From the IMG/VR virus record IMGVR_UViG_2648501730_000022, positions 1-27,879 of that record: DNA of 27,879 nucleotides, one strand, 5' to 3'. A program made the position numbers and the translations under genes. The notes beneath the pieces are model-generated. The model worked only from the letters and a program-made list of their open reading frames with translations. It did not search any database and had not been told where the DNA came from. Source of the DNA: a virus. Taxonomy: Duplodnaviria > Heunggongvirae > Uroviricota > Caudoviricetes. Numbering within the stretch: position 1 is the first letter of the stretch; every line of letters begins with the position of its first letter. Positions 7,987 through 27,879 of this stretch are shown piece after piece.

Positions 7987-8005
7987 CGGGGGAACTAGTC
8001 CCCCG
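7987..8005 (-). other. Hairpin CGGGGGA-ACTAG-TCCCCCG between fibre and tail tube genes
   Basis: 7-bp perfect stem; the same stem sequence recurs at 25555-25573. Confidence 0.5.
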
Positions 8006-8012
8006 ACTTTTA

Positions 8013-11513: not shown

Positions 11514-11544
11514 CTAGAATCACCTCACTATAAAACAGGAATAA

Positions 11545-11562
11545 GGGAGGCGTTAACCTCCC
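11545..11562 (-). terminator. Hairpin GGGAGG-CGTTAA-CCTCCC between the 277-aa gene and the fibre gene (attenuator-like)
   Basis: 6-bp GC stem followed by a U-rich tract on the minus strand, upstream of the fibre Shine-Dalgarno. Confidence 0.4.
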
Positions 11563-11594
11563 AACGTTCATGTTTTATTTAGGTAGGAGAATCC

Positions 11595-12428: not shown

Positions 12429-12437
12429 TATTACCCC

Positions 12438-12860: not shown

Positions 12861-13134
12861 GTGTACCCCCTGCTAAAGTGATAAAGCAATCACAAGTATT
12901 GTCACCATTGCGCTTAACGTATTGAACTTTGAAACGCTGGTTTTCTACTGTGACAATATCACCTTGCTTTAAGTCTCCCTCACGACAGAATAGAAATTCG
13001 GTTTCTGTCATTACACCTGATTCGTCGGTAGTAGTAATTTCATGGTAAGCACGAATTGATTTACCACCTTCCACCGAAAATACAGGAGCACTTTTAAACA
13101 TTCGATTTAATTGTGATTCTGATAATTTGAACAT
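12844..13134 (-). CDS. Head-tail adaptor / head completion protein (96 aa)
   Basis: Small ORF immediately after the capsid terminator; assigned by synteny. Confidence 0.3.
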   Translation of the reverse strand: MFKLSESQLNRMFKSAPVFSVEGGKSIRAYHEITTTDESGVMTETEFLFCREGDLKQGDIVTVENQRFKVQYVKRNGDNTCDCFITLAGGTHARYR

Positions 13135-13164
13135 AGTTACCCCCTTTATGGAGTATTTACATAC

Positions 13165-13190
13165 AAAAAAGCCCCACCGTTAGGCAGGGC
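13165..13190 (-). terminator. Rho-independent terminator after the capsid gene
   Basis: Minus-strand RNA GCCCUGCC-UAAC-GGUGGGGC followed by U6 (plus-strand A-run 13165-13170). Confidence 0.7.
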
Positions 13191-13196
13191 TAATTA

Positions 13197-13325
13197 TTAT
13201 TCTTTAGTTTTACGTTGTTTTTTAACTGTGGCTTTCGCCGTAACCGTCTGAGATTCTTCTTCCTGAGATGGAATCAGATTTTCTTCCCCCAAATCGGGGG
13301 AAGGTTCAGATGGTTCTACGTTAGT
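13197..13325 (-). other. In-frame post-TGA extension of the capsid gene (42 sense codons + TAATAA)
   Basis: Reading on past TGA at 13326-13328 gives TNVEPSEPSPDLGEENLIPSQEEESQTVTAKATVKKQRKTKE then TAA TAA (13194-13199). Confidence 0.5.
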
Positions 13326-15332
13326 TCATTCAGCGGAGATGTGAAGAACTTTCAGAGCTTCCGGCTGAACTACGGTGAAGTCCAGGTCTACCCAGATACG
13401 CGGAACGATAGCAGACTGTGCGCGGTAAGTGGTGTCGTCCATATCCAGTTCCAGACCACCCCATTCACCGATCATGATACCGGAGAAGTCACCCAGAACG
13501 ATGTGGTCTGCCGGAATAACGCCAGAAGTAACTACATCGTAACCAGCCAGTTTGCCGTTTTCGATGATATAACCGGAAACGCCGTTATCTTTCAGGGTAG
13601 ATTCCAGTTCAGCAGCAGTTGCACCGCTCATTGCAAACTTGATGGACTGTGCCGGAACGCCAGCGTCGGTCAGTGCTGCAATTTCTTTCAGGAAGTCTTT
13701 GTAGCTAAAAGCGGCTTTCTTAGTAACGCGACCACCGTCTACCAGTTGCTTAACCAGACCTTTCGGACCGCGCTCGTTGTCTTTGTCAGACAGAATCAGT
13801 TGTTCCAGTTTGATCCGAACAGATTTGTTAATGTGATCAGTGATCAGGGTAGCAATATTCGGAACAGTTTTCAGAGACTGACGGCTGATCGGGTTGCCAC
13901 CAGCAAAAGTTTTCGGAGCCATTTTCACGTTTTCAAAGCTAGCCTTCGATTCGGGGGCACTTCCATTTTCATCAACAAAACCAAAGGCTTCGACGCTGGA
14001 AGCAGTCATTTTTGGTACTGCAATCGGGCTATTCAGACCAGACAGAACAGTCACACCCAGACGACCCAGAACAGACTGTGGAAGCAGCATTTCTACATAG
14101 GATTCGGTCAGCAGTTTTTCGTCGGTTACAGCGGTCAGAGTAGCTTTGGTGTTACCTTCGGAAGCAGCACGCAGAGCAGCAGCCGGAACGAATACAGAGC
14201 CACCGCGAGCAGCACGACCACGCTGCATTGCAGCACCAGCAGCCATAGCGGAATATTCAGCTTCGTTAGCGCCGAGCACGTCGCCATCTACCAGGGAGCG
14301 GATTACGTTATTAAGATCGAAAGTTTTTTCCATGATTTGTTCCTTATTAATTTGTTCGTTATTACGTTGAGCATTGGTAATGTTATTTAGTGCCTTAGTG
14401 CGGAATGCTTCCGGCGTCATATCTTTAACTGCCAATGCGCGTTCTAATTCTTCGTCGTTAATATTTAACTCACGAGCGATTGCTCGGATTTCTTCTTCGT
14501 CTTCTTCGGAACGTTCAGCCACTTCTTCGATTTTTTCTTCTTCAACCGGAGCGGCTTCACGTTCTTCTTTTACTTCTTCTGTTTCCCGAACAGTTGAACT
14601 ATCATCATCAACACTTTCAGGATGTTTAGCGTCTTTTCCGTCTTCGAGATTTTCATCTTCTTTATTCTCTTCAACTTGGCGCTCTTGAGTTTCTTCTACT
14701 TCCGGTTCTTTATTTTCTTCTACCGGAGTTTCTTCAACCTGAGCGGGTTCTTGTTCTTCTTTGATTTCTTCGATTTGTTCTTTAGTCATATCGCGTTTAG
14801 CCTCCAAATTAACTGTGATAGTATTTAGAGAGCGATTCAGACCCACGGTGTCGTCTGCGGGAACAGACACCCATGAAACCTCGTGAGGAATCCATTTAGT
14901 AACAATCAATTGTCCTTTGGTGTAGTCGATGTGATATTCTTTAATGTCATAACCGACAGAAATTTTTTCCATCGTACCTTCAATGACTTTATTACGAATA
15001 TCATTAGCCAAAGTGCCATGCTTAGAGAATTTAACCAGAGCACGACCTACGTTATCCGCATCGATTCGAGCGTTACAAACGACACCAATATGATTATCGA
15101 AATTATGATTGAACAGCAACGGAGCGTTATTATTCAGACGAGACAGATCAACCGCTTCCGGTGTATGTACCAGAATTTCATCTAATACCACCATTTCTTG
15201 ATTTTGCTCATCCCAGAATTGGCGCTGATAAGGCTGTTCACTGGAGAAAGCAATTTCAAATTCGTATTGATCATTCTGCCCTTCGTTAATAACTCCACCG
15301 TAACCGTTAAGATCGCGGCGAAATTTAAGCAT
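13326..15332 (-). CDS. Fused prohead protease (HK97/S78-like) / scaffold-like acidic coiled coil / major capsid protein (668 aa)
   Basis: N-terminal ~170 aa carry a His (HNFDNHIG) and the ExSxVxxPA signature (HEVSWVSVPADD) typical of HK97-family prohead proteases; residues ~180-300 are Glu/Lys-rich and helical; the C-terminal ~350 aa look like an HK97-fold capsid domain. Confidence 0.7.
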   Translation of the reverse strand: MLKFRRDLNGYGGVINEGQNDQYEFEIAFSSEQPYQRQFWDEQNQEMVVLDEILVHTPEAVDLSRLNNNAPLLFNHNFDNHIGVVCNARIDADNVGRALVKFSKHGTLANDIRNKVIEGTMEKISVGYDIKEYHIDYTKGQLIVTKWIPHEVSWVSVPADDTVGLNRSLNTITVNLEAKRDMTKEQIEEIKEEQEPAQVEETPVEENKEPEVEETQERQVEENKEDENLEDGKDAKHPESVDDDSSTVRETEEVKEEREAAPVEEEKIEEVAERSEEDEEEIRAIARELNINDEELERALAVKDMTPEAFRTKALNNITNAQRNNEQINKEQIMEKTFDLNNVIRSLVDGDVLGANEAEYSAMAAGAAMQRGRAARGGSVFVPAAALRAASEGNTKATLTAVTDEKLLTESYVEMLLPQSVLGRLGVTVLSGLNSPIAVPKMTASSVEAFGFVDENGSAPESKASFENVKMAPKTFAGGNPISRQSLKTVPNIATLITDHINKSVRIKLEQLILSDKDNERGPKGLVKQLVDGGRVTKKAAFSYKDFLKEIAALTDAGVPAQSIKFAMSGATAAELESTLKDNGVSGYIIENGKLAGYDVVTSGVIPADHIVLGDFSGIMIGEWGGLELDMDDTTYRAQSAIVPRIWVDLDFTVVQPEALKVLHISAE

Positions 15333-15352
15333 TTAATCACCTTTAATTAATT

Positions 15353-15369
15353 GGGGGCATTGCGCCCCC
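15353..15369 (-). other. Hairpin GGGGGC-ATTGC-GCCCCC between portal and capsid genes
   Basis: 6-bp G/C stem in the 45-nt intergenic gap. Confidence 0.45.
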
Positions 15370-15377
15370 GTTGGTTA

Positions 15378-16889
15378 TTAGGGATCGGTTTGAGAAGGGT
15401 TATCCTTGCTCTCACCATCAACGATAATATTTAGTGCGCTCTTTTCGGCTTGAATCTCTGAGAATACTTTTTCAGGATCATCACCACGTTCTAATATAAC
15501 GGCAGTACGTGATTTAAGTCCGTTATCAATTAAAGCAATCTCGGCGCTTACGTCTTTAAATGGATCGACGGATTCAAAACGAGGACGAATAATAGTAGTG
15601 TTCTCGATAATATGCGGAATTGCAGTAATACGAATCGGAACAATACCACGCGCAGAATAATGGCGTAGATATGCTTCAAAAATTGGCAATACCACTGTTT
15701 CAATCAATTTGTTTTGCAGTGCTTTAACGCGCGTTCTTTGAAGTAATTCGCCGTAGCGTGCGGCGCTGTAATTTATTTGGCTAGTATCGCCAGTTAAGCC
15801 CTGATTGAACACGCCAAGACCCATCGCTATACTCGTGAACATTCCATCATTGAAGCTGTTAAAGTCATCGCCGCTTTGCGTGGATTGAATACTCTTGATC
15901 GTTGCCCCTTCCGGTAATTCCTGAATAGTACCTGGCGCGAAATCGTGAATAACTTCCGGCGCTTGATATTGTTCATCATCTTCACCAGTATCAAAATCGT
16001 CACCAGAATCTTTCGGACGCTCGATGAACGCCATGCTACAACTTGAAATTCGTTTATGTACCAGTACAGCTTCGCGGAATGCGTCTTGATGTGCGATATC
16101 CTTAATCACTGGCAGGAAGTCAGTCACACCACGCAGAGATTCAGCCGCAAGTGGTTGATAATAATGACATACTTGCGAAGCATCTACGCGATAGTTATCA
16201 CCTGTGTAAGTCTGAGTCAGTAGGTTGATTTTACGAAACCAAAATGCAACAGGGCGCATTGTTTCTACGTCATACTCGATCCCCTGATAGATAGCGCGTT
16301 CTTTGCTTACTTCACGGTTGAGCGTCCAGTCGCACTTATCAGCAGACAGGATAGAAACATTTAACTCATTGTTTTCTTTGGTTAAAACTATGAAGCACTC
16401 ACCACCCATAACGCGCTCACGTTCAGCCATTACCAGCAATTCACGGAAGTTAAAGCGACCGTTACGAGAGAAGCGTTTAGCATTCTGCGCCCACTTCCAG
16501 AAAGCATTCTCGATCTGCTTATTCAGTGCGCTATCAAGTTTTCCATTTGATTTAACAACTGACGGCTTCGGATCTAGGCCAGTACCTACCACCATATCGG
16601 TGATGTATTGCGTGTAGCGACTGCCTACGGAGGTGTTTAAGGCCAGAGTACGACCCTGATCATAAAGGCGCTTACCATTCGATTTGAGAGCCTTATTGAA
16701 GGTTCCTGTGATAGTATCTTGTTGAAGCGATCCATCAATGCGATCACCAACCAGACCTAAACTTCGAGTAGCCAGAGATTTCTGGAATTTTTCTACTTGT
16801 TTGTCGATAAAGATTTTTTGTTGTTGCTGGCGGTGATTAGTTTTAACTGGAGTTTCTACCGCCTTTTTGCGTCGAAAAAGATTAAACAT
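15378..16889 (-). CDS. Portal protein, lambda gpB-like (503 aa)
   Basis: ~500 aa protein between the gpW-like and capsid genes; GGGG Shine-Dalgarno 6 nt before the ATG; acidic C-terminal region. Confidence 0.8.
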   Translation of the reverse strand: MFNLFRRKKAVETPVKTNHRQQQQKIFIDKQVEKFQKSLATRSLGLVGDRIDGSLQQDTITGTFNKALKSNGKRLYDQGRTLALNTSVGSRYTQYITDMVVGTGLDPKPSVVKSNGKLDSALNKQIENAFWKWAQNAKRFSRNGRFNFRELLVMAERERVMGGECFIVLTKENNELNVSILSADKCDWTLNREVSKERAIYQGIEYDVETMRPVAFWFRKINLLTQTYTGDNYRVDASQVCHYYQPLAAESLRGVTDFLPVIKDIAHQDAFREAVLVHKRISSCSMAFIERPKDSGDDFDTGEDDEQYQAPEVIHDFAPGTIQELPEGATIKSIQSTQSGDDFNSFNDGMFTSIAMGLGVFNQGLTGDTSQINYSAARYGELLQRTRVKALQNKLIETVVLPIFEAYLRHYSARGIVPIRITAIPHIIENTTIIRPRFESVDPFKDVSAEIALIDNGLKSRTAVILERGDDPEKVFSEIQAEKSALNIIVDGESKDNPSQTDP

Positions 16890-16899
16890 GATTTACCCC

Positions 16900-17394
16900 T
16901 TATCGCGTAAGACGTAATTTGATATTTTTAATCGGACTAATTCCCTGTTTACGTCGTTCGGCTTGAATTAATTTAGATAACTGACGTTCATAATCAGTCT
17001 TTAATTGCTGGAGAACAGCCAATGACTCATAGGCGAAAGTATTCCCTTTCACTGTCATTTGAGATAATGCGGCTTCGTCCCCAGATAAACGGGCGAAAAT
17101 AACTTGCTCGATTAAGGCGATAGTTTCCCGCAGATATTCTTTTTTGGATTGTTTGGCGAATACTGGCAAAACAGTTAATTCCTGCATTGATACCAGTTCT
17201 TCTTCCAAAGTTATTACGATGGTATATTTACCTTCGGCAAAATCTAAGGTTTTAATCTCATGATTAGCCGGAGAATCATCAACCTGATAGATAATACCTT
17301 TATTATTTCCTACCTGAATTGTTACACCCTCTTCATTCGCCAGCGTGACTTTTTCGCCTTTACGAATTACTAAGGGAATTAGTTCTAAACTCAT
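16900..17394 (-). CDS. Head-tail joining protein with gpW-like C-terminal half (164 aa)
   Basis: C-terminal ~70 aa follow the lambda gpW pattern (recalled, not aligned); sits between large terminase and portal as in lambda A-W-B. Confidence 0.45.
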   Translation of the reverse strand: MSLELIPLVIRKGEKVTLANEEGVTIQVGNNKGIIYQVDDSPANHEIKTLDFAEGKYTIVITLEEELVSMQELTVLPVFAKQSKKEYLRETIALIEQVIFARLSGDEAALSQMTVKGNTFAYESLAVLQQLKTDYERQLSKLIQAERRKQGISPIKNIKLRLTR

Positions 17395-17442
17395 AATTAC
17401 CCCTTATTTAATTGTTATTGGATTAACAATATTTAGGAGTAA

Positions 17443-17461
17443 GCCGCCCCGAAGGACGGCG
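17443..17461 (-). other. Hairpin with UUCG tetraloop downstream of the large terminase stop
   Basis: Minus-strand RNA CGCCGUCC-UUCG-GGGCGGC (one G-U pair); no U-run, so more likely a stabiliser or pause site than a terminator. Confidence 0.4.
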
Positions 17462-17466
17462 AGTTA

Positions 17467-19371
17467 TTAGAACGATGTTACCCAGCTACGGCCTCTATTT
17501 GGGCGTCTGGCGATGTTTTTACGTTGTGGTCGTGTGATTGGCTTATTTTCTTCGATTTGCTCGTCAGATTGCGATTTAGGAGCTTCTACGGGTTCTTCTG
17601 GTTCGCGGTTCAAACTATCTTTGATGGCTTCGAGTTTTTCCCATGACATTTTATTGAGTACATGGCGAGAAGCAGCATAGGAATAAGCCAGGCAGTCGAG
17701 AGCCTCGTTTCGTTGCTGACCAACTTTTACCCAACGTGTGGTATTACCCTGCCGTTTCAACTGTTCAGATAACAATTGTTCGCAGTAGTCATCAGGAACG
17801 TCACCAATCTGGAAGACCGTATGAGGATCGCTGTCTCTCAAGTTCCGGTTAATCATTTCACGGATCATCGTCTTAAGGTTGTTTACGCCCAGAATTTTAA
17901 GAGTAAAACCACCCGTTCTTGTGTCCTTGACCGGAAGGATTGGAGCATCAACATTGCTTGCCCCTTTAATGGCGCATAGGTTTTGCCACCTAGTGCAGAA
18001 GCGATAGATCACGTTTGTAGCTCGTCCGTTCGATGAGTCCACGAAAGCAGATAGCATCGGGATTCGTTGACCTGATCGGGTATAGAATTTAGCTTTCAGG
18101 AAGTTGTAAAGCTGGTCATATGCTGGCGATTCGTGGCGTTCGCAGTTCACATCATAGAATGATCGGTGATCAACTACGCATATCCCCTTACGAGAGATAC
18201 CCAGCAAGGTAGATTCCAGACGGTCTTTTTGCTGGTCAACTCCACCTACCAGAGCCAGAACATCATCAGGAATATTATCTAAGCTAATGTCAGTTTTCAG
18301 CGTTTCCAGTTCGTCGGCTGTGCGGTCTTCGTTAAGATCATCGAAGGTTTCACCGAGCACCACATTATAGAACGTTGCCAGTGACATATTCGCGTAGCTA
18401 TCAGCAAAGTCCACCACACACGCACGGATAGAACTAAACGGAGACATAAGGCGGTTAGCATGAAAACCGATTACTTCCGCATTTGGTTCGGTGGCGACCC
18501 ATTCTCCCTGAGCAACAGCACGGAGGCGATCTGGTTCTGACCAATCAGTTTCACATGACGGGCAACGGTAAACGGCTGTGTCTGGATTCGGCAGTGATTT
18601 ACCATTGATTACATGCCAATCAAAGAATACTCTACTCCATTCCATTACGTGTTTGTGTCCGCAATGCTGGCAAACGACGTGGTATTTTCTTTTATCCGAG
18701 AGTTCCCATTGTTGGTTTATCGCCCCATCCCGCGAAGTTGGAGTAGAAGCAATTACGATCCTTGCATCATCACCGAAAGTGGTTGCGCGTTGTTCCGCTA
18801 GCTGGATCGGGTTCCCTTCGTCTGACTCATCAGCCGCATCAACTTCATCCAGAATAATCAAAGGCAGTGTCTTACCGCGCAAGTGTGATGGACTGTTCAG
18901 CGACATGAAATACATGAATGATCCGTTACGAAGCTGAATAATCGATGAGTTGTTAACGGCATTGCGATCTGATTTGTCGGTGATCATCGCCTTTAATTCT
19001 GGGGTTGCCTCTAATACTGGCTTCACCTTACCCGCAATCCATGAGTTCAATTCTCGAACGTTCGCTTGCAAAACACCGATATTAGTAGGGTTACTGGCGA
19101 TCCTGTGAAAGATAATACCGTTTAGCACAAGAGTTTTACCCAACTGTGCCGAGCACTTTAGCACAATTTTTCGCCTATCTTCGGTGATCGCGTCCATCAT
19201 TCCACGTTGGAAGGGATGCAACTTAATTAGAGATCCGGCTTTAACACCATCGGTTGCAACTACATTAGCCTCTACCCATTCGCTAGGTTTCATCGTTTTA
19301 GGTGGGCGAATTGCCGCAGAGATATTTTTAAGAATCTTTTTTAATTTGGCCTTATTAGAAATCAGTTTCAT
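17467..19371 (-). CDS. Terminase large subunit, lambda GpA-like (634 aa)
   Basis: Walker A motif (KCSAQLGKT) near the N-terminus; Cys-rich segment (CQHCGHKH...CPSCETDW); size and position match lambda gpA (641 aa). Confidence 0.9.
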   Translation of the reverse strand: MKLISNKAKLKKILKNISAAIRPPKTMKPSEWVEANVVATDGVKAGSLIKLHPFQRGMMDAITEDRRKIVLKCSAQLGKTLVLNGIIFHRIASNPTNIGVLQANVRELNSWIAGKVKPVLEATPELKAMITDKSDRNAVNNSSIIQLRNGSFMYFMSLNSPSHLRGKTLPLIILDEVDAADESDEGNPIQLAEQRATTFGDDARIVIASTPTSRDGAINQQWELSDKRKYHVVCQHCGHKHVMEWSRVFFDWHVINGKSLPNPDTAVYRCPSCETDWSEPDRLRAVAQGEWVATEPNAEVIGFHANRLMSPFSSIRACVVDFADSYANMSLATFYNVVLGETFDDLNEDRTADELETLKTDISLDNIPDDVLALVGGVDQQKDRLESTLLGISRKGICVVDHRSFYDVNCERHESPAYDQLYNFLKAKFYTRSGQRIPMLSAFVDSSNGRATNVIYRFCTRWQNLCAIKGASNVDAPILPVKDTRTGGFTLKILGVNNLKTMIREMINRNLRDSDPHTVFQIGDVPDDYCEQLLSEQLKRQGNTTRWVKVGQQRNEALDCLAYSYAASRHVLNKMSWEKLEAIKDSLNREPEEPVEAPKSQSDEQIEENKPITRPQRKNIARRPNRGRSWVTSF

Positions 19372-19458
19372 GTAATTACCCTCATTACGAAATATGAAGG
19401 TATTTATTAAATTGTTGATATTTTGATAAATACGGGTATTAAGATTTAAGGGGGGTGT

Positions 19459-20064
19459 ATGCTAATTAATCAGCAAGAAAGAGATGAATTAGAATTAGCC
19501 TTGTCTTGTTGTACCGATCATGAATATCGTTTGCCAGTTAAGCACCATCACAAGAAGACTGATTACACTACATCCGGTTTTAGTCGCGAAGAAGCGAAGC
19601 AAATTTTAATCGAGTTGTATCGCGATCATGGGTATACAGATATCCATAACTTCTTTAAGAAGCACCGAACATCACAGACAGAGTTTCAGCGAGTCCGTGA
19701 ATGGTTTGATTTTGATATCAAGCGTTATTATCGAGTGGATGACGGTCCAATCTATCGGTTGCAGTGGAAGCCGATCAGGGAAGTGCTTAAACAGAAGAGA
19801 TTGAATCATGCCATTACACGCTATCGTAACGTGGCTTTCAAGAAAGGCTATGGTGATACAAGGGAATTGTTTGTAGAACTCGCTAACGTGCGATATAGCC
19901 ATTATTACAGGAATCCTAAAGAGTTCTTCGAAGTGCTGCGCAAGGTTGATATAAGTCGGGGTACATACTATTCACGGTTGAAGAAGTACGGGATTAAGGC
20001 AGAGTTTTTTATGTCAGTTGACGATGGAGAACTTTTTCCGATAAAATGTAAGTCCTCTAAATAA
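19459..20064 (+). CDS. Hypothetical basic protein with C-terminal HTH-like motif (201 aa)
   Basis: GGGGGG Shine-Dalgarno before the ATG; divergent from the terminase gene across an 87-bp gap; C-terminal SRGTYYSRLKKYGI resembles the 59-aa protein at 23335-23514. Confidence 0.5.
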   Translation: MLINQQERDELELALSCCTDHEYRLPVKHHHKKTDYTTSGFSREEAKQILIELYRDHGYTDIHNFFKKHRTSQTEFQRVREWFDFDIKRYYRVDDGPIYRLQWKPIREVLKQKRLNHAITRYRNVAFKKGYGDTRELFVELANVRYSHYYRNPKEFFEVLRKVDISRGTYYSRLKKYGIKAEFFMSVDDGELFPIKCKSSK

Positions 20065-20098
20065 AGGTGAACATTCACTTTAATTTGGAGAAATGACT

Positions 20099-20323
20099 AT
20101 GACTACTAAAGCTACTCGCGGTCGTCCTGCCCGTTTTAATCGTGAACAACTGGCAGAGATTGTAAAAGCGTACTATCAAGCACCGAAAGGTAAAGAGAAC
20201 AAAGAACGGGTATTAAATGAGCATGGCTTATCTATAGCCCAGCTATACAAATCCCTACATAAAGTTGATTTGAAATTCTTTGTTCAGGTTGACGGTGAAA
20301 TGGTAGAAGCAACAGGAAATTGA
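20099..20323 (+). CDS. Small DNA-binding protein with RGRP (AT-hook-like) N-terminus and HTH, 74 aa
   Basis: Start moved to the second ATG (20099), which has a GGAG Shine-Dalgarno ~8 nt upstream. Paralog of the 23335-23514 product (shared RP.(R/K)F.RE..(A/V)(E/D)I.K). Confidence 0.5.
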   Translation: MTTKATRGRPARFNREQLAEIVKAYYQAPKGKENKERVLNEHGLSIAQLYKSLHKVDLKFFVQVDGEMVEATGN

Positions 20324-20331
20324 TTCTCTAG

Positions 20332-20358
20332 GCCAATCCTTCGGGGTTGGCTTTTTTT
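20332..20358 (+). terminator. Rho-independent terminator with UUCG tetraloop
   Basis: GCCAAUCC-UUCG-GGGUUGGC followed by U7, 9 nt after the TGA stop. Confidence 0.75.
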
Positions 20359-20372
20359 ATACCTACAGATAC

Positions 20373-20397
20373 AAAAAAGCCCCTGAAATTCAGGGGC
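20373..20397 (-). terminator. Rho-independent terminator of the Rha operon
   Basis: Minus-strand stem GCCCCUGA / UCAGGGGC followed by U6 (plus-strand A-run 20373-20378), just below the Rha stop. Confidence 0.7.
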
Positions 20398-20405
20398 AAA
20401 AATTA

Positions 20406-21203
20406 TTACAGTCCGAAGTGTTCTAGCGATCCAACATTCTGACGAATCATGATAGTCGCTTTATTCTGAATCATGATCGTGTTATTCGGTTTAGGCAGTG
20501 TCAAAGCTGCTTTTTGTTCTTCTTCAAGAACACCCAATTCAACCAGCACCGGAAGCACATCAACAGTGAAAGAAAGTTGATAGTGAGCGTTCATGCTGCA
20601 AAACGGTATCGCGGAATCATTAGCAACATACCCACACGGCTTGTTATTTTCATCATAGACGCGCTCAATGTATCCGGCAGTACGTAAGGCCGTCAGTGCT
20701 TCTTTAACCTTCGTAGCGCCCTTTTTAGCACCTAACAGACGCGTCATTGAATGGCTATCTACGGATTTGCGATGATGTAGAGTAATCAGTTGCTTGTTCT
20801 CGCGAGTTTTCTTTAACGCCAGTTCGATCCAGTCGGTTTCTTCAAAGTCTGCATACGGGTTAACGGCTAAACGTTCCTGACGCAGTTTTTCATTTTCTTC
20901 TTTCAGTCGTTTCCATTCCTGAATAACAATCATTCGACGTTTAACATCGTAACCAGTAACAAGAGTCAGCGTCATTTCTTCGTCAAGGTGATATTCGGTT
21001 TGTTCGCGTCCATATTGGTCAAAATAGATACGCTGAGATTTCAGCGCATCTAATTCAAGTGCTTTAAACATCTTAACAATATCAGCTTTAACGTTTTTGT
21101 GTTCTTTTCCGGTAAATTCAGCGATCTGACGAGAAGACATGGTCAGTGGTTTGGTGTTATCAACAACCAGAGACACGGAAGCAGTTTTAACAGCAGTATT
21201 CAT
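20406..21203 (-). CDS. Phage regulatory protein Rha family (antirepressor-like), 265 aa
   Basis: N-terminal LTMSSRQIAEFTGKEHKNVKADI matches the Rha-domain signature; AAGGGGGA Shine-Dalgarno before the ATG. Confidence 0.75.
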   Translation of the reverse strand: MNTAVKTASVSLVVDNTKPLTMSSRQIAEFTGKEHKNVKADIVKMFKALELDALKSQRIYFDQYGREQTEYHLDEEMTLTLVTGYDVKRRMIVIQEWKRLKEENEKLRQERLAVNPYADFEETDWIELALKKTRENKQLITLHHRKSVDSHSMTRLLGAKKGATKVKEALTALRTAGYIERVYDENNKPCGYVANDSAIPFCSMNAHYQLSFTVDVLPVLVELGVLEEEQKAALTLPKPNNTIMIQNKATIMIRQNVGSLEHFGL

Positions 21204-21287
21204 AGTAAAAATCCCCCTTAACGGTTTAGTGATTTAATCCTCCCTGTTCCGGCATCACCACCGGAACAATTTTATTTATAAGAAGTT

Positions 21288-21440
21288 TTATCTCGTTTTG
21301 TATTCAGCCAGGCAGCGATCAATTTCTTCTTGAATCTGGCGCTGGCGTTCGTGGTAATCAACCATCGAGAAATTCAGGTTTGGTGTCCACGGCTTGCGGT
21401 TCGGGTTTTTACGTCCATCAATTTTCTTAGTAGTATTCAT
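21288..21440 (-). CDS. Small basic protein (50 aa); not in the ORF track
   Basis: ATG (rc of 21438-21440) with AGAGGA Shine-Dalgarno ~9 nt upstream; translation MNTTKKIDGRKNPNRKPWTPNLNFSMVDYHERQRQIQEEIDRCLAEYKTR; TAA at 21288-21290. Confidence 0.35.
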   Translation of the reverse strand: MNTTKKIDGRKNPNRKPWTPNLNFSMVDYHERQRQIQEEIDRCLAEYKTR

Positions 21441-21562
21441 AGTTCACATCCTCTTTACAAACCTAGGTCAAATCAGTTCAAAGTTGTCAAGTGCGATAAT
21501 CATAAAAAAGTCTGAAAATTTTGCCAATACCCCTTGACAAGATGCCAAAGGGTTGACCTAAC

Positions 21563-22030
21563 TTACAGCATATCTAAGCCTTCATCGTAACCGTAGAAGC
21601 CACCGTGAGAAGAAAAAGCGATTGGTGCGTAGTCATCATCATCTTCGTCTTCTTCATCGCGTTCTGGTGCTTTCTGAGCGGTTTCTTTGCCGTAGTTAAA
21701 CATTGCTTCATCCAGTTCTTGAAGAGTAAAGAAGCTACCCAGATCAACATCACCGGAACGGACTTCGAAAGGAAGGTATTCGCTAACGATGATCGCTGGA
21801 ATATTCTGGTACTTTAAGCGGCCTTCATCGGTGAAGACGTTAACAACAATGGTCGGCTTCTTATTACGGCAAAACGCATACCATACACTAGAGAAATGAG
21901 ATTCATCAGAGTTGAAAAGAATGTTGTAACCACGTTCAACAAAGATCTTCATTAACTTGTCATTGTGGAAGCTATCAGCATCAAAACCTAACAGGATGAA
22001 AGGAGTAGTGGTAGTCATTTTATGGTTCAT
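21563..22030 (-). CDS. Hypothetical protein with strongly acidic C-terminal tail (155 aa)
   Basis: AGAGGA Shine-Dalgarno before the ATG; C-terminal ERDEEDEDDDDYAPIAF...; first gene leftward from the long intergenic region. Confidence 0.5.
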   Translation of the reverse strand: MNHKMTTTTPFILLGFDADSFHNDKLMKIFVERGYNILFNSDESHFSSVWYAFCRNKKPTIVVNVFTDEGRLKYQNIPAIIVSEYLPFEVRSGDVDLGSFFTLQELDEAMFNYGKETAQKAPERDEEDEDDDDYAPIAFSSHGGFYGYDEGLDML

Positions 22031-22645
22031 AGTGGAAATCCTCTAAAAGAAAGCGAATCAATCTAATATTATTTATAAAGAGAAAATTCTTGTTATTATG
22101 AAAAGAGTGATCTGGTAGAGTCCAAAACTGGTCTGTACTTGAAAGATGATTGGATTCAGTCGGGCTAAAGCCCCCCTTCATAGATTTGATTAAATCATCA
22201 TCAAAACGAAGAAGTATCTTTAGAATATAAGAATCTTTCTTTTGAAGAAATAATAATCAGGAAGCAATTTAGCAACCGAAGGTTGCAATCCCGAAGGGAT
22301 ACCAATACCTTTCTAGAAATTGATTGTTACTCACTTCGTTCGTTTACTAGAATCAGTTAGTAACTAGTATTAAATCCCTTTCTAAGAAAATCCTTTTAAA
22401 AGTGAGTGAACGCCGTAGGCGTGAACGTGAGCGAAGCGAACTATCAATCCCTTTCGAATCCTGCTTGCAGGTCTTAGAAGGTGTTGGTGGGCGCTACGCG
22501 CACGGCTACGCCGTATTCTTTTTGCGAGATCTTTCTTGAACGTAGTGAGAGAAAGCGAGCAAAAAGGAGAACGTTAGTTCGAATTTTATATTCTATGGTC
22601 TGTGGGGTATAATACCTTTCAAGGTCATACACTTACGTGATTGAA

Positions 22646-22764
22646 GTGTAGGGTTAGTGTAGGTGTGTAGGTTTCATAGTGTAGGTTTGAGGGTGTTATA
22701 GTGTAGGTTTACTGGCTAGTGTAGTGTAGGCCAATCCCTTTAAAGGGTAGGTGTGTAGTGTAGG
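22646..22764. repeat. Iteron-like direct-repeat array, 7 copies of GTGTAGG (mostly GTGTAGGTTT)
   Basis: Copies begin at 22646, 22657, 22665, 22679, 22701, 22724 and 22758, same orientation, irregular spacing; the 12-bp palindrome CCCTTTAAAGGG (22735-22746) sits inside the array. Confidence 0.7.
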
Positions 22765-22961
22765 TTTTCAATCAAAAATTTTGACAAAAAATTCTTGTAT
22801 ATTATTCAACCAAAAAACCACCAAAAATAGATGTAAATTCATGATTTAAAAGAAATTTTCAAAAGATCTCCGTGCCATATAAGGTTTAAAAGGTTGATAA
22901 TCATTATTTGCCATTTTCAAACAAAAATTTTGATACACCTTTCTCGCTTAGATCATGAATG

Positions 22962-22990
22962 TTGACATGTGTCAAGAACTATTTTATACT
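22962..22990 (+). promoter_or_regulatory. Near-consensus sigma70-type promoter with operator-like palindrome over the -35
   Basis: TTGACA (22962-22967), 17-nt spacer, TATACT (22985-22990); TTGACAtgTGTCAA is a 14-bp palindrome. Confidence 0.5.
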
Positions 22991-23128
22991 TTTTATCCTT
23001 GGTAGGGGTTGAAATTTTCCAAACAATCCCCATATAGATGATAAGCATGATTTTTCGTGTATAAATACAATGCATGAAAAATGATTGTTCACTTCTGAAA
23101 ATCCCTTGACTAACTGTTAATTCATACA

Positions 23129-23155
23129 GCACTGGTTAGATATGCAGTGCTTTTT
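23129..23155 (+). terminator. Intrinsic terminator ~140 nt downstream of the promoter
   Basis: GCACUG-(10-nt loop)-CAGUGC followed by U5. Confidence 0.5.
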
Positions 23156-23334
23156 CGGTCGAATATTGTACGAATTGATTAATTATTAATCTTCTCTTTA
23201 GCAATTCGTGCTCCCACTGATCGGATATACAGTTGTTTTACAGAGTTTTTGAAAATCATTTTTATAAATAGAATTGTTCAGAGCGAAAAGCTCTTTTTTA
23301 AGGAATTATTAATCCACATGTGAGGAATCGATTT

Positions 23335-23514
23335 ATGGCTAGACCTGTTAAATTTACTCGTGAAATGATTGTTGATATTGCTAAACGGTTTTACAGCGAC
23401 ACTGAGCGAGGCGGGGAAAACTTCTTTAAGAAGGAAGGGATTGATAGAAGCGGATTCTATAAGCTAATGAAGAAATACGAAATTCAGGTAAAGATTAACG
23501 TTCAAGTTTGTTAA
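23335..23514 (+). CDS. Small HTH protein, paralog of the 20099-20323 product (59 aa)
   Basis: ATG at 23335 has a GAGGAA Shine-Dalgarno 7 nt upstream (the track start is a GTG with none); MARPVKFTREMIVDIAKRFY... aligns with the other paralog. Confidence 0.5.
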   Translation: MARPVKFTREMIVDIAKRFYSDTERGGENFFKKEGIDRSGFYKLMKKYEIQVKINVQVC

Positions 23515-23630
23515 TCCACTTTCACTGAGAATTATATGATGGCTTTAAAAATAAAAAGCCTCCCTTGTTGCAGCAAAGGAGACTTGAAATGAACAATTAA
23601 AACTAACACAGCATTCAGGAGTATTTATAA

Positions 23631-24656
23631 ATGAAAAATTCTAAGCGCATCACCTTCAACCTATTCATCAAATCCAACGGCAAACTGAACATTACCGTTA
23701 TGGAAGGTAAAGCAAGCAAACAAGACAAATCCTTTGAAGTAGTATCCGGTAAGACTCTGACCGAAATGCGTCAGAATGCTGGCATCAAAGACGGTGCTGA
23801 ATGGCAGATCACTAACCGTTTCGACAAACGTCACGTTAAACCTACACTGGTAGAAGGTGAATCCGTTTATTGCTTCGCTCGTGCTGTTAAAGCCGATGAA
23901 ACTTACTATCTCGCTGTTATTAAAACTGCTTCCGGCTTCCGTGCTGTAATGCATCACAAGAGCAAGCGTAACGAATACGGCGTAGAGACCCAGGAAGTTG
24001 CAAAACGCTTCCGTACTGTTGCTACTGAATCCACTGTAAAGGATGTTTCTGGTACTGTTAACACCGCTAAAGGCGGTTCCTTCTACAACCACGCATTACA
24101 GGTTACTTCCTCCTTCTTCTGCAAAAAAGAAGCACAGAAAGAAGTTGCTCCGGTAGTAGTTGAAGAAGTTAAAGAAGAAGTTGCAGTGGTTGAATCTTCC
24201 GAAGTTGAAGCACTGAAAGCACGCATTGCTGAACTGGAAGCTGAAAACGCATCTCTGAAAGCTGAACTGGCAGCGCAGGAAACCACTTTCGAAGTAGCAG
24301 CGGTTGAAGTTGAAGCAGTTGAAGAAAAATCCATTGATGAAGAACTGGAAGAACTCCTTAACTATCGCTGGGGTAACGGTGAAAAAGTAGGACAGGAAGA
24401 ACAGAAAGAAGCTGATCCGGTAGTAGTTCCGGTTGAAGAAAAATCCGCACCTGTTACTAACTTTGAATCCCTGCGCAATAACTTTATGGCTAAATTCAAA
24501 ACCACTTGGGAAGATACCGAAGAAGAACAAGAAGAGATTGAAGTAAACGAAGACGAGATCCGCGAAGCACAGATGGCACTGCATGACGCTATCTATGACA
24601 CCAACTACAGCGCCTACGCCTACGCCTACGCCTACGCCTACGCCTACGCAGCTTAA
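23631..24656 (+). CDS. Strongly codon-optimised acidic protein with (AY)6-AA C-terminus (341 aa), function unknown
   Basis: AGGAG Shine-Dalgarno 9 nt before the ATG; codon use is almost exclusively CTG/CGT/GGT/AAA/GAA/ACC/TTC, unlike neighbouring genes; central Glu/Val-rich coiled coil; ends ...SAYAYAYAYAYAYAA. Confidence 0.7.
   Translation: MKNSKRITFNLFIKSNGKLNITVMEGKASKQDKSFEVVSGKTLTEMRQNAGIKDGAEWQITNRFDKRHVKPTLVEGESVYCFARAVKADETYYLAVIKTASGFRAVMHHKSKRNEYGVETQEVAKRFRTVATESTVKDVSGTVNTAKGGSFYNHALQVTSSFFCKKEAQKEVAPVVVEEVKEEVAVVESSEVEALKARIAELEAENASLKAELAAQETTFEVAAVEVEAVEEKSIDEELEELLNYRWGNGEKVGQEEQKEADPVVVPVEEKSAPVTNFESLRNNFMAKFKTTWEDTEEEQEEIEVNEDEIREAQMALHDAIYDTNYSAYAYAYAYAYAYAA
24612..24647 (+). 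repeat. Hexanucleotide microsatellite (GCCTAC)x6 encoding the (AY)6 tail
   Basis: Six perfect tandem GCCTAC units in frame at the 3' end of the 341-aa gene. Confidence 0.9.
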
Positions 24657-24671
24657 TAGAGAGGTAATTCT

Positions 24672-24914
24672 ATGATTAATCAAAACAAAGAATTTCTTGG
24701 TAATCTGATGTTAGAAATTACCAAAATGAAAGAAAGAATGGTAGCGATGGAATCAGAGATTAAAACTCTTAAAGCTGATAATAAGGCGTTGAGAAAGTCC
24801 TTAAAACTGATTGATGAGACTAATGCGGTTATGATGGATCAGGTGTTTCCTGAGTGGCGAAATGAAACTAAACCTACACAACATAAGAAACCTACACTTC
24901 GAATTGTTGCATAA
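24672..24914 (+). CDS. Small coiled-coil protein (80 aa)
   Basis: AGAGG Shine-Dalgarno before the ATG; starts 16 nt after the upstream stop; helical K/E-rich sequence. Confidence 0.5.
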   Translation: MINQNKEFLGNLMLEITKMKERMVAMESEIKTLKADNKALRKSLKLIDETNAVMMDQVFPEWRNETKPTQHKKPTLRIVA

Positions 24915-24936
24915 AAAAGGGACTCCGAAGAGTCCC
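24913..24936 (-). terminator. Hairpin terminator with UUCG tetraloop (minus-strand U-run; may also stop the plus-strand operon)
   Basis: Minus-strand RNA GGGACUC-UUCG-GAGUCCC followed by U6. Confidence 0.6.
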
Positions 24937-25013
24937 TAGTAAGTTTAGGTTAGGTTTGCACAACAAAGATGAGGTTATAATGAACATAATGCTACATTAT
25001 TCTTTAAAGCCAG

Positions 25014-25037
25014 AAAAATAACCGCCCCGAAGGGCGG
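25014..25037 (-). terminator. Rho-independent terminator with UUCG tetraloop
   Basis: Minus-strand RNA CCGCCC-UUCG-GGGCGG followed by a U-rich run (UUAUUUUU). Confidence 0.6.
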
Positions 25038-25195
25038 GAGGATTAATACTCAATCTATACTTGTTATGTTTTTGTGTTGTATAGATCACTGACTATGAAA
25101 ACACTGTACTGGAGTGTGTTTTATGGCTTTTAATCGGGAATCCTCAAAGAAGATCCCCTGTTAATAACCATAAGGAGAAAAGGCAGATTACACTA

Positions 25196-25369
25196 TTATT
25201 TAGTATCCTTTTTACAGCAACTAAAAAGAATAAACAGGATTAAGCATACCCAGCCGTAAGGCGTACCGATTAGAAATTTGAAAAACACCACCAGCGATAT
25301 AAAAATCAATTTAATGCCAGCGACGATAGTCAAAAACAGCAGAGTAGCAAAGTAGACAAAAAGATCCAT
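25196..25369 (-). CDS. Small hydrophobic membrane peptide, two predicted TM segments (57 aa); not in the ORF track
   Basis: ATG with AGAGGA Shine-Dalgarno ~8 nt upstream; translation MDLFVYFATLLFLTIVAGIKLIFISLVVFFKFLIGTPYGWVCLILFILFSCCKKDTK. Confidence 0.4.
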   Translation of the reverse strand: MDLFVYFATLLFLTIVAGIKLIFISLVVFFKFLIGTPYGWVCLILFILFSCCKKDTK

Positions 25370-25422
25370 AGATAATCCTCTTTGAAAACGACCATCATCT
25401 ATAGTTCAATTCATCGATTTAA

Positions 25423-25524
25423 TTAATGATACTTGAAAGCGTTACACACAGTAGAAATGCCAATGTGAGCAAGTGAATATACGATAGTTAATCCTACAGC
25501 CAGATAAATCAAAAATTCAACCAT
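25423..25524 (-). CDS. Small hydrophobic peptide, one predicted TM segment (33 aa); not in the ORF track
   Basis: ATG with GAGGA Shine-Dalgarno upstream; translation MVEFLIYLAVGLTIVYSLAHIGISTVCNAFKYH. Confidence 0.3.
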   Translation of the reverse strand: MVEFLIYLAVGLTIVYSLAHIGISTVCNAFKYH

Positions 25525-25554
25525 AGGTAAATCCTCAAATAAGAAAAAGGTTAG

Positions 25555-25573
25555 CGGGGGATGTTCTCCCCCG
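25555..25573 (-). other. Hairpin CGGGGGA-TGTTC-TCCCCCG between the 184-aa gene and the peptide genes
   Basis: Same 7-bp stem as the hairpin at 7987-8005; followed on the minus strand by a U-rich tract. Confidence 0.5.
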
Positions 25574-25624
25574 TAGACGTTGACCAGCTCAACATCCTTC
25601 ACGTATATGTTTAGTATCTAATTT

Positions 25625-26179
25625 TTAAGACACATCAAATTCATCGTCTTCTTCTGGTTCTTGTTCCGGTTCATCCATTAATGCTAATTCTTCTTCCTCG
25701 TCTTCTCCCAAATCTGCATTTTCGAACAAGTCCCCTACTTCATTTAAACGACGTTCGATGATCTCCCTTAGCTTATTCTTCAATGTTTTCTGATCAGTGG
25801 CGGATTCTAAAATTTCTAGGGCATCGATCGTACAAATCTGCAAAATAGTCTGTTTCACTTTCCCGCAGTATTCCGCTAGTTCCTGTTCTACATAACCGAC
25901 AGGAATCAGGAGATTCATTTTTTCCTGGTTCTCTCGTTCGGCTGCATCTGCCAAAGCACGTTCACGGCGTAATTTCTCTACGTCGATTTGTTCTTTGATA
26001 GAAGTTTGTTTAAGCGGGTTGATAATATTTTTCAAGACCCATTCTGTTCCTTCTTTGGCTGGCACGCGGCGGGTATTGGTGTTAAATGGCAATCCCCTTT
26101 CTAACCATCGCTTACCGCCACCATTCAATGTATAGCCATATAAACGGGAAATTTCTGTAAGGGTTAATTCTTCTTTCAT
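25625..26179 (-). CDS. DNA-binding protein, possibly terminase small subunit (lambda Nu1-like), 184 aa
   Basis: N-terminal HTH-like LTLTEISRLYGY, then GGGKRWLERGLP and EKLRRERA, recalled as resembling Nu1 (181 aa); acidic C-terminal tail. Confidence 0.4.
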   Translation of the reverse strand: MKEELTLTEISRLYGYTLNGGGKRWLERGLPFNTNTRRVPAKEGTEWVLKNIINPLKQTSIKEQIDVEKLRRERALADAAERENQEKMNLLIPVGYVEQELAEYCGKVKQTILQICTIDALEILESATDQKTLKNKLREIIERRLNEVGDLFENADLGEDEEEELALMDEPEQEPEEDDEFDVS

Positions 26180-26537
26180 TGGTTATCCTCCATTAAATTT
26201 GCGTAATTTTATTTATTGGTTTTACGCACAATCTAAGCGCCTAAATCGCATTCTAACGAAGGGAAAGATCCAGTAATGGTAAGGGTTAGGAAGTGGGTTA
26301 ATAGTCGCGTAGCGACCGCGCCATAAGTGAAGTGATCACGTTTTAGAATCTCACACGCACATCAAATACCAGGGTGCCGAAAACTCCCTTTATTTCATCC
26401 ATGGAACAGTACCTTTTTAATTTGTCAAGTATTAATTTCTTAATTTAATTACTAAATCTCACCCCAATAATTGAAAAAATATCAAAAATCAATAAAGTAA
26501 GCATCTAAAAGTCAGTCCATACCAAAAGAGGTATAAA

Positions 26538-27305
26538 ATGAAAAACATTATCGCTGCTATCATGCTTTCTGCTACTGCTTTCGGTGCTGATGCTGCGTCC
26601 TTTGATTGCACTAAGGCTACTACCAAATCAGAGAAGTTTATTTGTGCTAATGAGTCAATCTCCGCACTGGATTCTAAACTTCATGAAGTATATGTTAAGG
26701 CTGTTAAGATTAATCCGTCTCTTAAACAAGAGCAACGTAACTGGAATAAAACTGTTCGTGACACAATGATCAATATCGGGCAGATTCAGCCACTGGAGGC
26801 TGTATACAACGCTCAAATCCAAAACTTGATGAATGTATTATCTAAAGAAGAAACCGCGTCAGGGAGCGTTTCAGAGACTTCTGCGAAGGTTGAAGAAGAA
26901 CAACCGAAACAGGAAGAAAAAGTGGTGGAAGAACCGAAGGTTGAAGATAAACCAAAAGGATTTACCGGAGACATGACATTGCAATGCGATGTTCACTATA
27001 GCTGGGAAATCCAAGACGGGGTAGAAACAAAAGCAGTTAAAGACATTGGCTATCCTCGTTATAACTCTGGTGAACTTAAACTTAAAGTAAAAGACGGGGA
27101 AATTATTGAATTTGTGTATCGTGATAATTATGACGCGCATAAAGCAAAGACAAAAACAGTGACGCATCAGAATGGCGCAATGCAATATGAAGGCCAAGTG
27201 GATAACAAAAAATATTATGTGTGGCGTGATAATCAAGATATGATTCGCTTAGAAGTACATAAAAAATATTCAAGAACATACATTGACCAGTACGGGTGCA
27301 AATAA
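26538..27305 (+). CDS. Secreted protein with LprI / DUF1311-like N-terminal domain (255 aa)
   Basis: Signal peptide MKNIIAAIMLSATAFGADA; then FDCTKATTKSEKFICANESISALDSKLHEVY...QRNWNK, the DUF1311 pattern; AGAGG Shine-Dalgarno before the ATG. Confidence 0.6.
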   Translation: MKNIIAAIMLSATAFGADAASFDCTKATTKSEKFICANESISALDSKLHEVYVKAVKINPSLKQEQRNWNKTVRDTMINIGQIQPLEAVYNAQIQNLMNVLSKEETASGSVSETSAKVEEEQPKQEEKVVEEPKVEDKPKGFTGDMTLQCDVHYSWEIQDGVETKAVKDIGYPRYNSGELKLKVKDGEIIEFVYRDNYDAHKAKTKTVTHQNGAMQYEGQVDNKKYYVWRDNQDMIRLEVHKKYSRTYIDQYGCK

Positions 27306-27528
27306 TTATGAAATTCAATAACATGAAGATCACAAAAGATTGGTGGGATGCGATGAAAGCTAACCACCAGAACGATATTAATTAAGTAACATTTTAGATA
27401 TACAGCACCCAGCTAACAGATCACCTTTTATGGATTTCATTATAACCCTTTTGATCTGGAAACTATGTTAATTAGTTGATTTCTAAGCCTTGTCCTTGTG
27501 ATGGGGCTTTTTATTGCAAAATTTTTAG

Positions 27529-27879
27529 TTATTTGGGGTTGACTACATTCGGGTTGCCAATTCGCCTGGCTAACTCTTGCTGAGTGATTTCTGACTGTAA
27601 AAAAGCATTTAACAGCAATACCTTAGAGGCGACGCTCAAAGGTACTTCAATAAAATGATCGTGACTATTTAATGGCGAAGGTAACGGGATAAGCTCGTTA
27701 TCTTCAAAATAAAAATCAAATGCGGTCAGTAAAGCATCTTTTGCCGCTTCCATCGCTTCAGCGACAGTTTCGCCCTGGGTCAACGCTTCAGGGATATCCA
27801 CAAAAGAAACCATATAACCGCCTTCCGGCGCGGGTGTAAGAGTGACGGGATAACGCATAATTTCGACTGTCTCTCGCAT
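27529..27879 (-). CDS. hicB: HicB antitoxin N-terminal domain with C-terminal HTH truncated; probable host gene interrupted at the prophage junction
   Basis: MRETVEIMRYPVTLTPAPEGGYMVSFVDIPEALTQGETVAEAMEAAKDAL... is a HicB N-terminal domain and matches my recollection of E. coli HicB. The ORF stops at ...QQELARRIG-NPNVVNPK*, inside the first helix of the expected Xre-type HTH. The ATG is at the window edge. Confidence 0.65.
   Translation of the reverse strand: MRETVEIMRYPVTLTPAPEGGYMVSFVDIPEALTQGETVAEAMEAAKDALLTAFDFYFEDNELIPLPSPLNSHDHFIEVPLSVASKVLLLNAFLQSEITQQELARRIGNPNVVNPK

Follow-up and report, generated by a model that had tools for sequence, protein, structure and literature searches.

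A prophage attR junction within the hicB antitoxin gene of Escherichia coli, attributed to a large serine recombinase

Organization of the window

The window, which is the whole stretch of 27,879 nucleotides analysed here, carries prophage DNA at positions 50..27553, which make up the right-hand part (~27.5 kb) of an element of ~35 kb. The left limit of the phage DNA is set by the terminal 49 bp of an IS3-family insertion sequence (1..49, minus strand), which present the inverted-repeat end (TGAACCGCCCCGGGAATCC...). Positions 1-40 are identical to an IS3-family end in E. coli C325 (starting at 6408 of L001, with the IS end at ~6457 of L001), and the source contigs that carry this exact truncated reading frame break inside the IS, with an HTH_Tnp_1 transposase reading frame beginning just beyond. 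The gene cut by the IS encodes a tail-tip protein. Its 5' part occupies 50..1983 on the minus strand, and the open reading frame (1..1983, 660 aa) runs into the IS and stops there. In intact relatives the protein has ~1258 aa, and positions 51-90 of the window map to 15662 of L004, within a 3777-nt gene (13818..17594). Because the IS3-family element interrupts the tail-tip gene, the window's own copy of the prophage is probably defective, and because the source contigs stop inside the IS, the recombinase and the attL of its own genome lie out of view.

According to annotation tables and PHROGs, the prophage part encodes tail, head and portal proteins, the large terminase, a Rha/Ant-like regulator, the small terminase and a moron cassette. 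Positions 1-25000 share ~90% nucleotide identity, over 80-88% of their length, with prophages in E. coli H2, CE0007a and others. Isolated phages of this prophage lineage are absent from the 50,697 phage records searched, where the best terminase match in a protein search is 44% identical. The layout of the packaging module is unusual, the small terminase homologue (phrog_57, 25625-26179) lying ~6 kb from the large terminase (17467-19371), with the Rha/Ant-like regulator, several uncharacterised genes and a gene-free region between them. This last region (22031-23630) extends for ~1.6 kb with no reading frame of 80 aa or more, has no annotated gene in the related prophages L001, L003, L004 and L006, and includes iteron-like repeats (TAGTGTAGGTGTGTAGG, 22655-22758) as well as two copies of a 31-nt repeat, at 22765 and 22914. 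Rfam returned nothing for it, and a role as an origin or a regulatory region is possible.

The last phage gene before the junction is a moron of the LprI family (lysozyme-inhibitor-like), located at 26538..27305 on the plus strand and recognised by Pfam LprI and by phrog_14799 (E = 1e-114). Together with a short reading frame at ~27308..27385, it forms a segment (26532-27368) with 94-96% DNA identity to 'hypothetical' genes of the virulent T4-like Krischvirus phages RB49, JSE, KFS-EC and MIZ4. From this identity the cassette looks like a moron that a temperate prophage and lytic myoviruses have exchanged in recent times; in a megablast search of the 50,697 phage records it was the sole match, and the rest of the window's phage half returned none. 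The cassette is closed, before the att arm, by a terminator-like hairpin on the plus strand (27485..27514) that was found in a terminator scan and consists of a 10-pair stem followed by TTTTT; it also appears in the minimum-free-energy and centroid folds, with a z-score of -1.36, a fold that taken by itself is weak evidence. No Rfam family was detected at the junction or elsewhere in the window, and no sigma-70-like promoter was detected at 27200-27879.

The truncated hicB allele

The right edge of the window is occupied by a truncated hicB allele (27529..27879, minus strand), in which 108 native residues are followed by NPNVVNPK and a stop codon, giving a protein of 116 aa from an upstream ATG. 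With the start preferred by PGAP (MRYP, at 27858) the product has 109 aa, and the native part amounts to 101 of 138 residues on that numbering. Residues 1-108 of the reading frame match HicB of E. coli K-12, whose sequence used here agrees in full with the solved EcHicB chain 6HPB (138 aa). From position 27554 rightward the DNA shares 99.4% identity with the intact hicB of K-12; leftward of it the sequences are unrelated. Codon 109 is AAC (N) where the native gene has AAA (K), its first two bases being the crossover dinucleotide, and after it come seven phage-derived codons (PNVVNPK) and TAA. Alignment to an uninterrupted hicB, a check proposed with the initial annotation, puts the breakpoint at 27554-27555. 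The description given there of an N-terminal part of HicB up to QQELARRIG, followed by NPNVVNPK and a stop, agrees with the reading frame and with the K-12 comparison, and its assignment of the right flank to E. coli hicB agrees with the 99.4% DNA identity. The resemblance is no accident, given that 5323 of 5426 complete E. coli genomes carry this hicB sequence.

The Pfam HicB_lk_antitox domain is found in both the truncated and the intact alleles, PF15919 covering residues 10-74 of the window's reading frame. The HTH_3 domain (PF01381) is found in intact K-12 HicB only, at residues 88-134 of 138, and is absent from the window's allele. The initial annotation put the break within helix one of the DNA-binding domain; the HTH_3 profile moves it slightly later, to the turn that follows 'TQQELARRIG', the first helix belonging to the helix-turn-helix motif itself. 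The protein retains the N-terminal partial RNase H domain and loses the recognition helix ('KPKQEITRLFN') and everything downstream of it, including the C-terminal β-strand used for dimerisation. By its reading frame and domain content, the window's hicB is a truncated derivative and not an intact HicB of the helix-turn-helix class. PGAP labels the same allele in C325, H2, EC416 and L73 as 'hicB, incomplete, missing C-terminus'. The window stops at the start of hicB; in C325, which is 100% identical to the last 600 bp of the window, hicA (WP_000813794.1, the same as in K-12) lies directly next to it.

The host locus and its attachment sites

In complete copies of the element, such as those of H2 (L003) and EC416 (L004), a ~35 kb prophage lies between two fragments of hicB. 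The 5' fragment adjoins hicA-yncJ-rlhA and a 120-nt 3' fragment adjoins ydcR at attL, so that the flanks of the prophage in complete lysogens show the K-12 gene order with a phage inserted. Since both halves are present in this order around the phage, hicB is host DNA that has been split and not replaced. The central reading of the initial annotation, a host hicB interrupted at a prophage integration junction, is therefore upheld by both the junction and the synteny; its suggestion that the insertion had replaced the 3' end of hicB is not, this end having been displaced by ~35 kb to attL, where it survives as the 120-nt fragment.

The hicB-like gene could instead be cargo of the phage, or a naturally short allele. 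Phages and plasmid-prophages do carry hicAB, as exemplified by Cyrano of LF82 (PMC9928086), and natural HicB proteins commonly have no DNA-binding domain (PMC10865869). Against phage cargo stand the 99.4% identity to K-12 hicB within the K-12 context hicA-yncJ-rlhA, the occurrence of the hicB sequence in 5323 of 5426 complete E. coli genomes, nearly all of them without any phage, and the intact state of the missing 3' end beside ydcR at the other junction. Homologues in E. coli do not naturally end at the break: nearly all of the 5323 run on past it into the native 3' end. The gene is flanked by hicA-yncJ-rlhA and, beyond the prophage, by ydcR, and is thus not part of the mobile element. The synteny and the presence of both halves of hicB refute the cargo and short-allele explanations, to which we attach next to no probability.

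The split of a host gene by a prophage can be followed here to the base pair. In the window, attR consists of a phage-derived P arm (TATTTGGGGTTGACTACATTCGGG, 27530..27553), which in addition provides the truncated hicB with its seven terminal foreign codons and its stop, the crossover dinucleotide TT (27554..27555) and a host-derived B' arm within hicB (GCCAATTCGCCTGGCTAACTCTTG, 27556..27579) that is identical to intact K-12 hicB. The uninterrupted attB reads ...CTCCTGTTTAGGT-TT-GCCAATTCG..., attL (EC416 and L73) reads ...CTCCTGTTTAGGT-TT-TCCTAATATCATG..., and attR (the window, C325, EC416 and L73) reads ...GACTACATTCGGG-TT-GCCAATTCG.... The attL site equals attB through the TT and attR equals attB from the TT onward, so that the host identities overlap by exactly 2 bp, and the TT bases, which establish the position of the crossover, are the only ones common to attB, attL, attR and the reconstructed attP (TATTTGGGGTTGACTACATTCGGG-TT-TCCTAATATCATGTACCCACAATA). 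This overlap could be resolved because in the window-type phage the arm and the host sequence diverge immediately at the TT (TTCGGG in the phage versus TTTAGGT in the host). In the variant found in H2 the phage arm mimics the host and the junctions share 9 bp (TTTAGGTTT), and therefore the crossover point would have been hidden there. A direct repeat or att core matching at the far end of the element, which had been expected initially, does not exist beyond the 2-bp TT.

The arms of attP, with the P' arm taken from the attL of EC416 and L73, form an imperfect inverted repeat in which 15 of 24 positions match, a value reached by 3 of 5000 shuffled sequences. The attB site is no more symmetric than expected by chance (7/24 at the hicB site and 8/24 at the ycdX site described below), and attP and attB clearly differ from each other. 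The central dinucleotide (TT/AA) is non-palindromic, and the relative orientation of phage and host gene is the same in all 37 hicB lysogens and in the ycdX lysogen. An exact-pattern search of IMG/VR for a continuous attP gave no match; the IMG/VR contigs at this place are trimmed at gene starts.

The recombinase and the proposed integration mechanism

In complete relatives of the prophage, a 559-aa 'recombinase family protein' is encoded ~1.5 kb inside attL, that is, outside the window. In EC416 this protein contains the Resolvase (PF00239, E = 2e-14), Recombinase (PF07508) and Zn_ribbon_recom (PF13408) domains, all above their gathering scores, and its N-terminal ...YIRFSSMRQ... may be read as the catalytic motif of a serine recombinase. 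This domain architecture is that of a large serine recombinase (LSR), as judged from the protein families matched. No tyrosine integrase is annotated in the complete copies of the element in H2 and EC416. The initial expectation of an integrase at the other end of the element was right as regards a recombinase, which complete relatives do carry there; this enzyme is a large serine recombinase and not a tyrosine integrase, and the left end of the window is not that end of the element but an IS3-family end within the tail-tip gene.

The checks proposed with the initial annotation implied a tyrosine-integrase prophage inserted at the 3' end of a gene, with a substitute 3' end and an att core in direct repeat. 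Many E. coli prophages are generally known to integrate in this way, and the 9 bp (TTTAGGTTT) shared in H2-type junctions could pass for such a core. In the window-type phage, however, the shared core is only 2 bp, where ~7 bp or more would be expected; the sole recombinase between attL and attR in the complete copies is the protein with Resolvase, Recombinase and Zn-ribbon domains; and hicB is not reconstituted, its frame ending after eight foreign codons. The 2-bp core and the LSR domains together refute integration by a tyrosine enzyme, which we regard as very improbable.

Large serine recombinases make staggered 2-bp cuts, rotate their subunits and religate the DNA. In such systems the enzyme by itself recombines attP with attB, excision additionally requires a directionality factor, and polarity is fixed by the non-palindromic dinucleotide at the centre of the sites. 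Integration by the LSR is assigned to the window from relatives that are 90% identical to it, the recombinase and attL lying outside the window, and the chemistry of the exchange is inferred from knowledge of the enzyme family. On this basis, LSR dimers would bind attP and the attB within hicB and introduce, at the central TT of each, breaks staggered by 2 bp. Subunit rotation and religation would then generate attL (the hicB 3' end joined to the P' arm, beside ydcR) and attR (the P arm joined to the hicB 5' end, beside hicA). As no base is gained or lost in integration, excision is predicted to restore hicB exactly.

Recurrence and decay among E. coli genomes

The window's junction itself is matched across its length by 17-19 complete E. 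coli genomes. More generally, recurrence of the integration is established by the finding of the hicB attR in 37 of 5426 complete E. coli genomes and of attL in at least 34. These 37 lysogens come from humans, pigs, cattle, poultry and water and include several phage variants that differ in the cargo beside both arms; in most of them attL and attR are 33-42 kb apart. The 28 relatives of the recombinase in IMG/VR come from predicted prophages whose ends were cut back to gene starts; only four keep a junction, which in each case is an attL in hicB and shows the same TT.

Decayed copies are frequent in this prophage lineage. Prophage remnants of 4-14 kb are present in L73, PK5074, PSJ-07, EC707, EC05, EC42405 and 2020CK-00188, and in C325 the prophage has been split by a ~205 kb rearrangement and the recombinase is shortened to 279 aa. 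The type of IS found at positions 1-49 of the window is also present in the C325 prophage, at a different place, where it is associated with the ~205 kb rearrangement and the truncated recombinase.

A sister lineage integrated into ycdX

A sister prophage, ~90% identical in nucleotide sequence, splits a different gene, ycdX, in E. coli GN4741 (fragments at 3168..3509 and 38836..39240 of L006). Its junctions have the same arrangement of phage arm, TT and host arm, with the same TT and nearly identical attP arms, which are symmetric at 16 of 24 positions (reached by 1 of 5000 shuffles). When the ycdX host arms are rejoined through a single TT, the resulting sequence occurs uninterrupted, at 100% identity, within ycdX in thousands of genomes, and therefore a scar-free, conservative exchange is demonstrated at the sister site. 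This ycdX-type prophage is present in at least 12 complete genomes, and UTME-9 apparently carries a ycdX-type prophage as well as a hicB junction.

The LSR of the ycdX-type prophage also has 559 aa and is 92% identical to that of the hicB type. When the single ycdX-type sequence is compared with the residues that are invariant in five hicB-type enzymes, 39 ycdX-specific substitutions are found, 30 of which fall within residues 176-351; the Pfam Recombinase and Zn-ribbon matches, which represent the DNA-binding domains, cover residues 198-368. Such clustering, seen in one ycdX-type sequence, fits a change of target specificity.

The state of hicA in lysogens and in other genomes

Of the 37 hicB lysogens, 27 have a full-length hicA (four checked by sequence, one by protein accession and 22 by alignment span and annotation label), eight carry a 22-bp hicA deletion allele, and two (one verified, one inferred) carry a 444-bp deletion that removes hicA together with the 5' end of hicB. 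The 22-bp deletion lies between TGCG repeats and occurs in 811 of the 5426 complete genomes (e.g., L037 7656..7810 and L039 6516..6670). The 444-bp deletion removes the promoter region and hicA, reaches 177 nt into hicB and affects roughly 1000 genomes (L036, ~6051); ~1069 of 5323 genomes are without the segment containing hicA and the 5' part of hicB. The 22-bp allele was counted with an asymmetric query and the 444-bp allele was estimated from genomes with less than 80% coverage. The status of hicAB thus varies widely in E. coli independently of the phage, and about a third of the genomes are already without hicA function.

Three lesions among the prophage remnants had raised the idea of a selective loss of hicA in lysogens, which was rejected once the baseline had been measured: the 22-bp allele is present in 8 of 35 lysogens and in 803 of 3749 other genomes (odds ratio 1.09, Fisher p = 0.84, phylogeny being ignored). 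Since it is equally common elsewhere, the hicA lesions are to be seen as lineage alleles and not as responses to the phage. The phage has also integrated into a hicB remnant without hicA (EC42405), integration into the 444-bp deletion allele being possible because the attB part of hicB is kept. Conversely, hicA is intact in remnants whose truncation of hicB is irreversible (C325, L73, PK5074 and PSJ-07).

Predicted consequences for HicAB function

The N-terminal domain of HicB masks the active site of HicA and so neutralises it, the C-terminal helix-turn-helix domain binds the operator of promoter P2, and the EcHicB dimer forms through the β-strand that follows the helix-turn-helix (PMC11594946). 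P2 directs expression of the antitoxin only and P1, which is CRP-S/Sxy dependent, that of both proteins (PMC11594946). Having lost its recognition helix and dimerising strand, the truncated HicB would exist as a monomer and would not repress the antitoxin-only P2, and with P2 repression lost the output of antitoxin would, if anything, be raised. It is therefore plausible, from this domain analysis, that the truncated protein still neutralises HicA but loses autoregulation.

Another view is that the truncated HicB is non-functional or rapidly degraded, lysogens surviving because hicA is essentially silent. The dependence of P1 on CRP-S and Sxy (PMC11594946) is in keeping with such silence, and the lost dimer interface and the two orphan helices could destabilise the protein. 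Three observations point the other way. HicA is inhibited independently of the DNA-binding domain of HicB, being bound through helix α1 of the N-terminal domain, and the most prevalent classes of HicB lack a DNA-binding domain altogether (PMC10865869). Yersinia HicB3 still complexes HicA3 when its C-terminal domain is missing (PMC11594946). Finally, hicA has stayed intact in old remnants decayed by IS elements, from which an unneutralised toxin would be expected to disappear. A non-functional or degraded HicB is accordingly considered unlikely, and retention of HicA neutralisation by the truncated protein is preferred.

The truncation might also be adaptive, either as an addiction device or benefit, or by disarming or rewiring an anti-phage defence formed by HicAB, with excision switching hicB on in a form of 'active lysogeny'. 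Several points are compatible with such a role. Integration is conservative, so excision would as a logical consequence restore hicB; other LSR elements are generally known to split host genes as switches (comK, spsM and sigK); and both targets of this lineage, hicB and ycdX, are intragenic. HicA modules have also been proposed to take part in defence against phages (PMC10865869). The genomic data weigh in the opposite direction. Lysogens show no excess of hicA inactivation (p = 0.84), about a third of E. coli lost hicA function without the phage (811 genomes by the 22-bp and ~1069 by the large deletion), integration extends to hicB remnants without hicA (EC42405), and the sister lineage targets the unrelated gene ycdX. 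This suggests that the site was chosen for its sequence and its dispensability and not for its function. An adaptive role is thus improbable, and the initial proposal of a possible benefit or addiction effect finds no support, hicA lesions being no commoner in lysogens than elsewhere.

The disruption of hicB looks instead like a tolerated, roughly neutral damage in a dispensable and often decayed locus. In conclusion, positions 27530-27579 of the window very probably represent the attR left by site-specific, LSR-mediated integration of a ~35 kb temperate phage into E. coli hicB, and the disruption of the gene looks like tolerated collateral damage and not like an addiction device. Integration that splits hicB in this way is a clear but ordinary kind of event, with no sign of either a gain or a cost for the host.

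A more speculative proposal, to which we give a small chance, joins the two lineages. The prophages would represent a natural case of serine-integrase retargeting, in which 92%-identical enzymes with nearly the same attP use an attB in either hicB or ycdX, and the insertion in hicB would reversibly switch a toxin-antitoxin module for which a role in phage defence is suspected. If this were true, lysogeny would strip HicB of its repressor domain and scar-free excision would return it.

Significance and comparison with known systems

Part of this was on record already, as PGAP flags both halves of hicB as incomplete, and the LSR only as a 'recombinase family protein'. What is added is the exact boundary and the mechanism for this prophage lineage, and hicB and ycdX join the attachment sites of E. 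coli prophages; the searchable literature yielded nothing specific on either gene as a prophage or serine-integrase attachment site. The definition of attB, attP, attL and attR at base-pair resolution, together with a pair of related enzymes, could serve serine-integrase engineering. The 37 natural genomes with an EcHicB devoid of its DNA-binding domain, beside a mostly intact hicA, offer a test bed for autoregulation in vivo.

Compared with HicAB of E. coli K-12 (6HPB/6HPC), in which HicB belongs to the helix-turn-helix type of class 3, the window's allele shares the first 108 (101) residues, the locus and the neighbouring hicA, whereas the C-terminal 37 residues, comprising the recognition helix, the following helices and the dimerising strand, are exchanged for eight phage-encoded residues. 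It resembles HicB classes 1 and 2 of Gerdes 2024 (PMC10865869) in consisting essentially of a toxin-neutralising fold without an operator-binding domain. By contrast, those classes are evolved full-length proteins and the window's allele is an accidental truncation that keeps the linker and two orphan helices of the helix-turn-helix. With respect to the sister lineage, the phage is ~90% identical and uses the same TT with a different attB.

LSR elements that split genes are well established and include the Listeria phages A118 and phi10403S in comK, Bacillus SPbeta (with SprA) in spsM, the skin element (with SpoIVCA) in sigK and the mycobacteriophage Bxb1 in groEL1. The hicB prophage is like the comK, spsM, sigK and groEL1 elements in encoding an enzyme with Resolvase, Recombinase and Zn-ribbon domains and in integrating inside a coding sequence. 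It further shares with them a 2-bp non-palindromic exchange without duplication, an attP that forms an imperfect inverted repeat, and an excision predicted to restore the gene. It differs in its host, E. coli, where tyrosine integrases dominate, in its target, a type II antitoxin gene, and in that a developmental or regulated excision is so far hypothetical. The nearest LSRs among the 50,697 phage records are ~30% identical and belong to the Burkholderia phages Bcep176 and JC1 and to YbcK-like proteins of E. coli. On these comparisons, the hicB junction appears to work like those of the known gene-splitting LSR prophages, while its enzyme and phage are not close to any characterised member.
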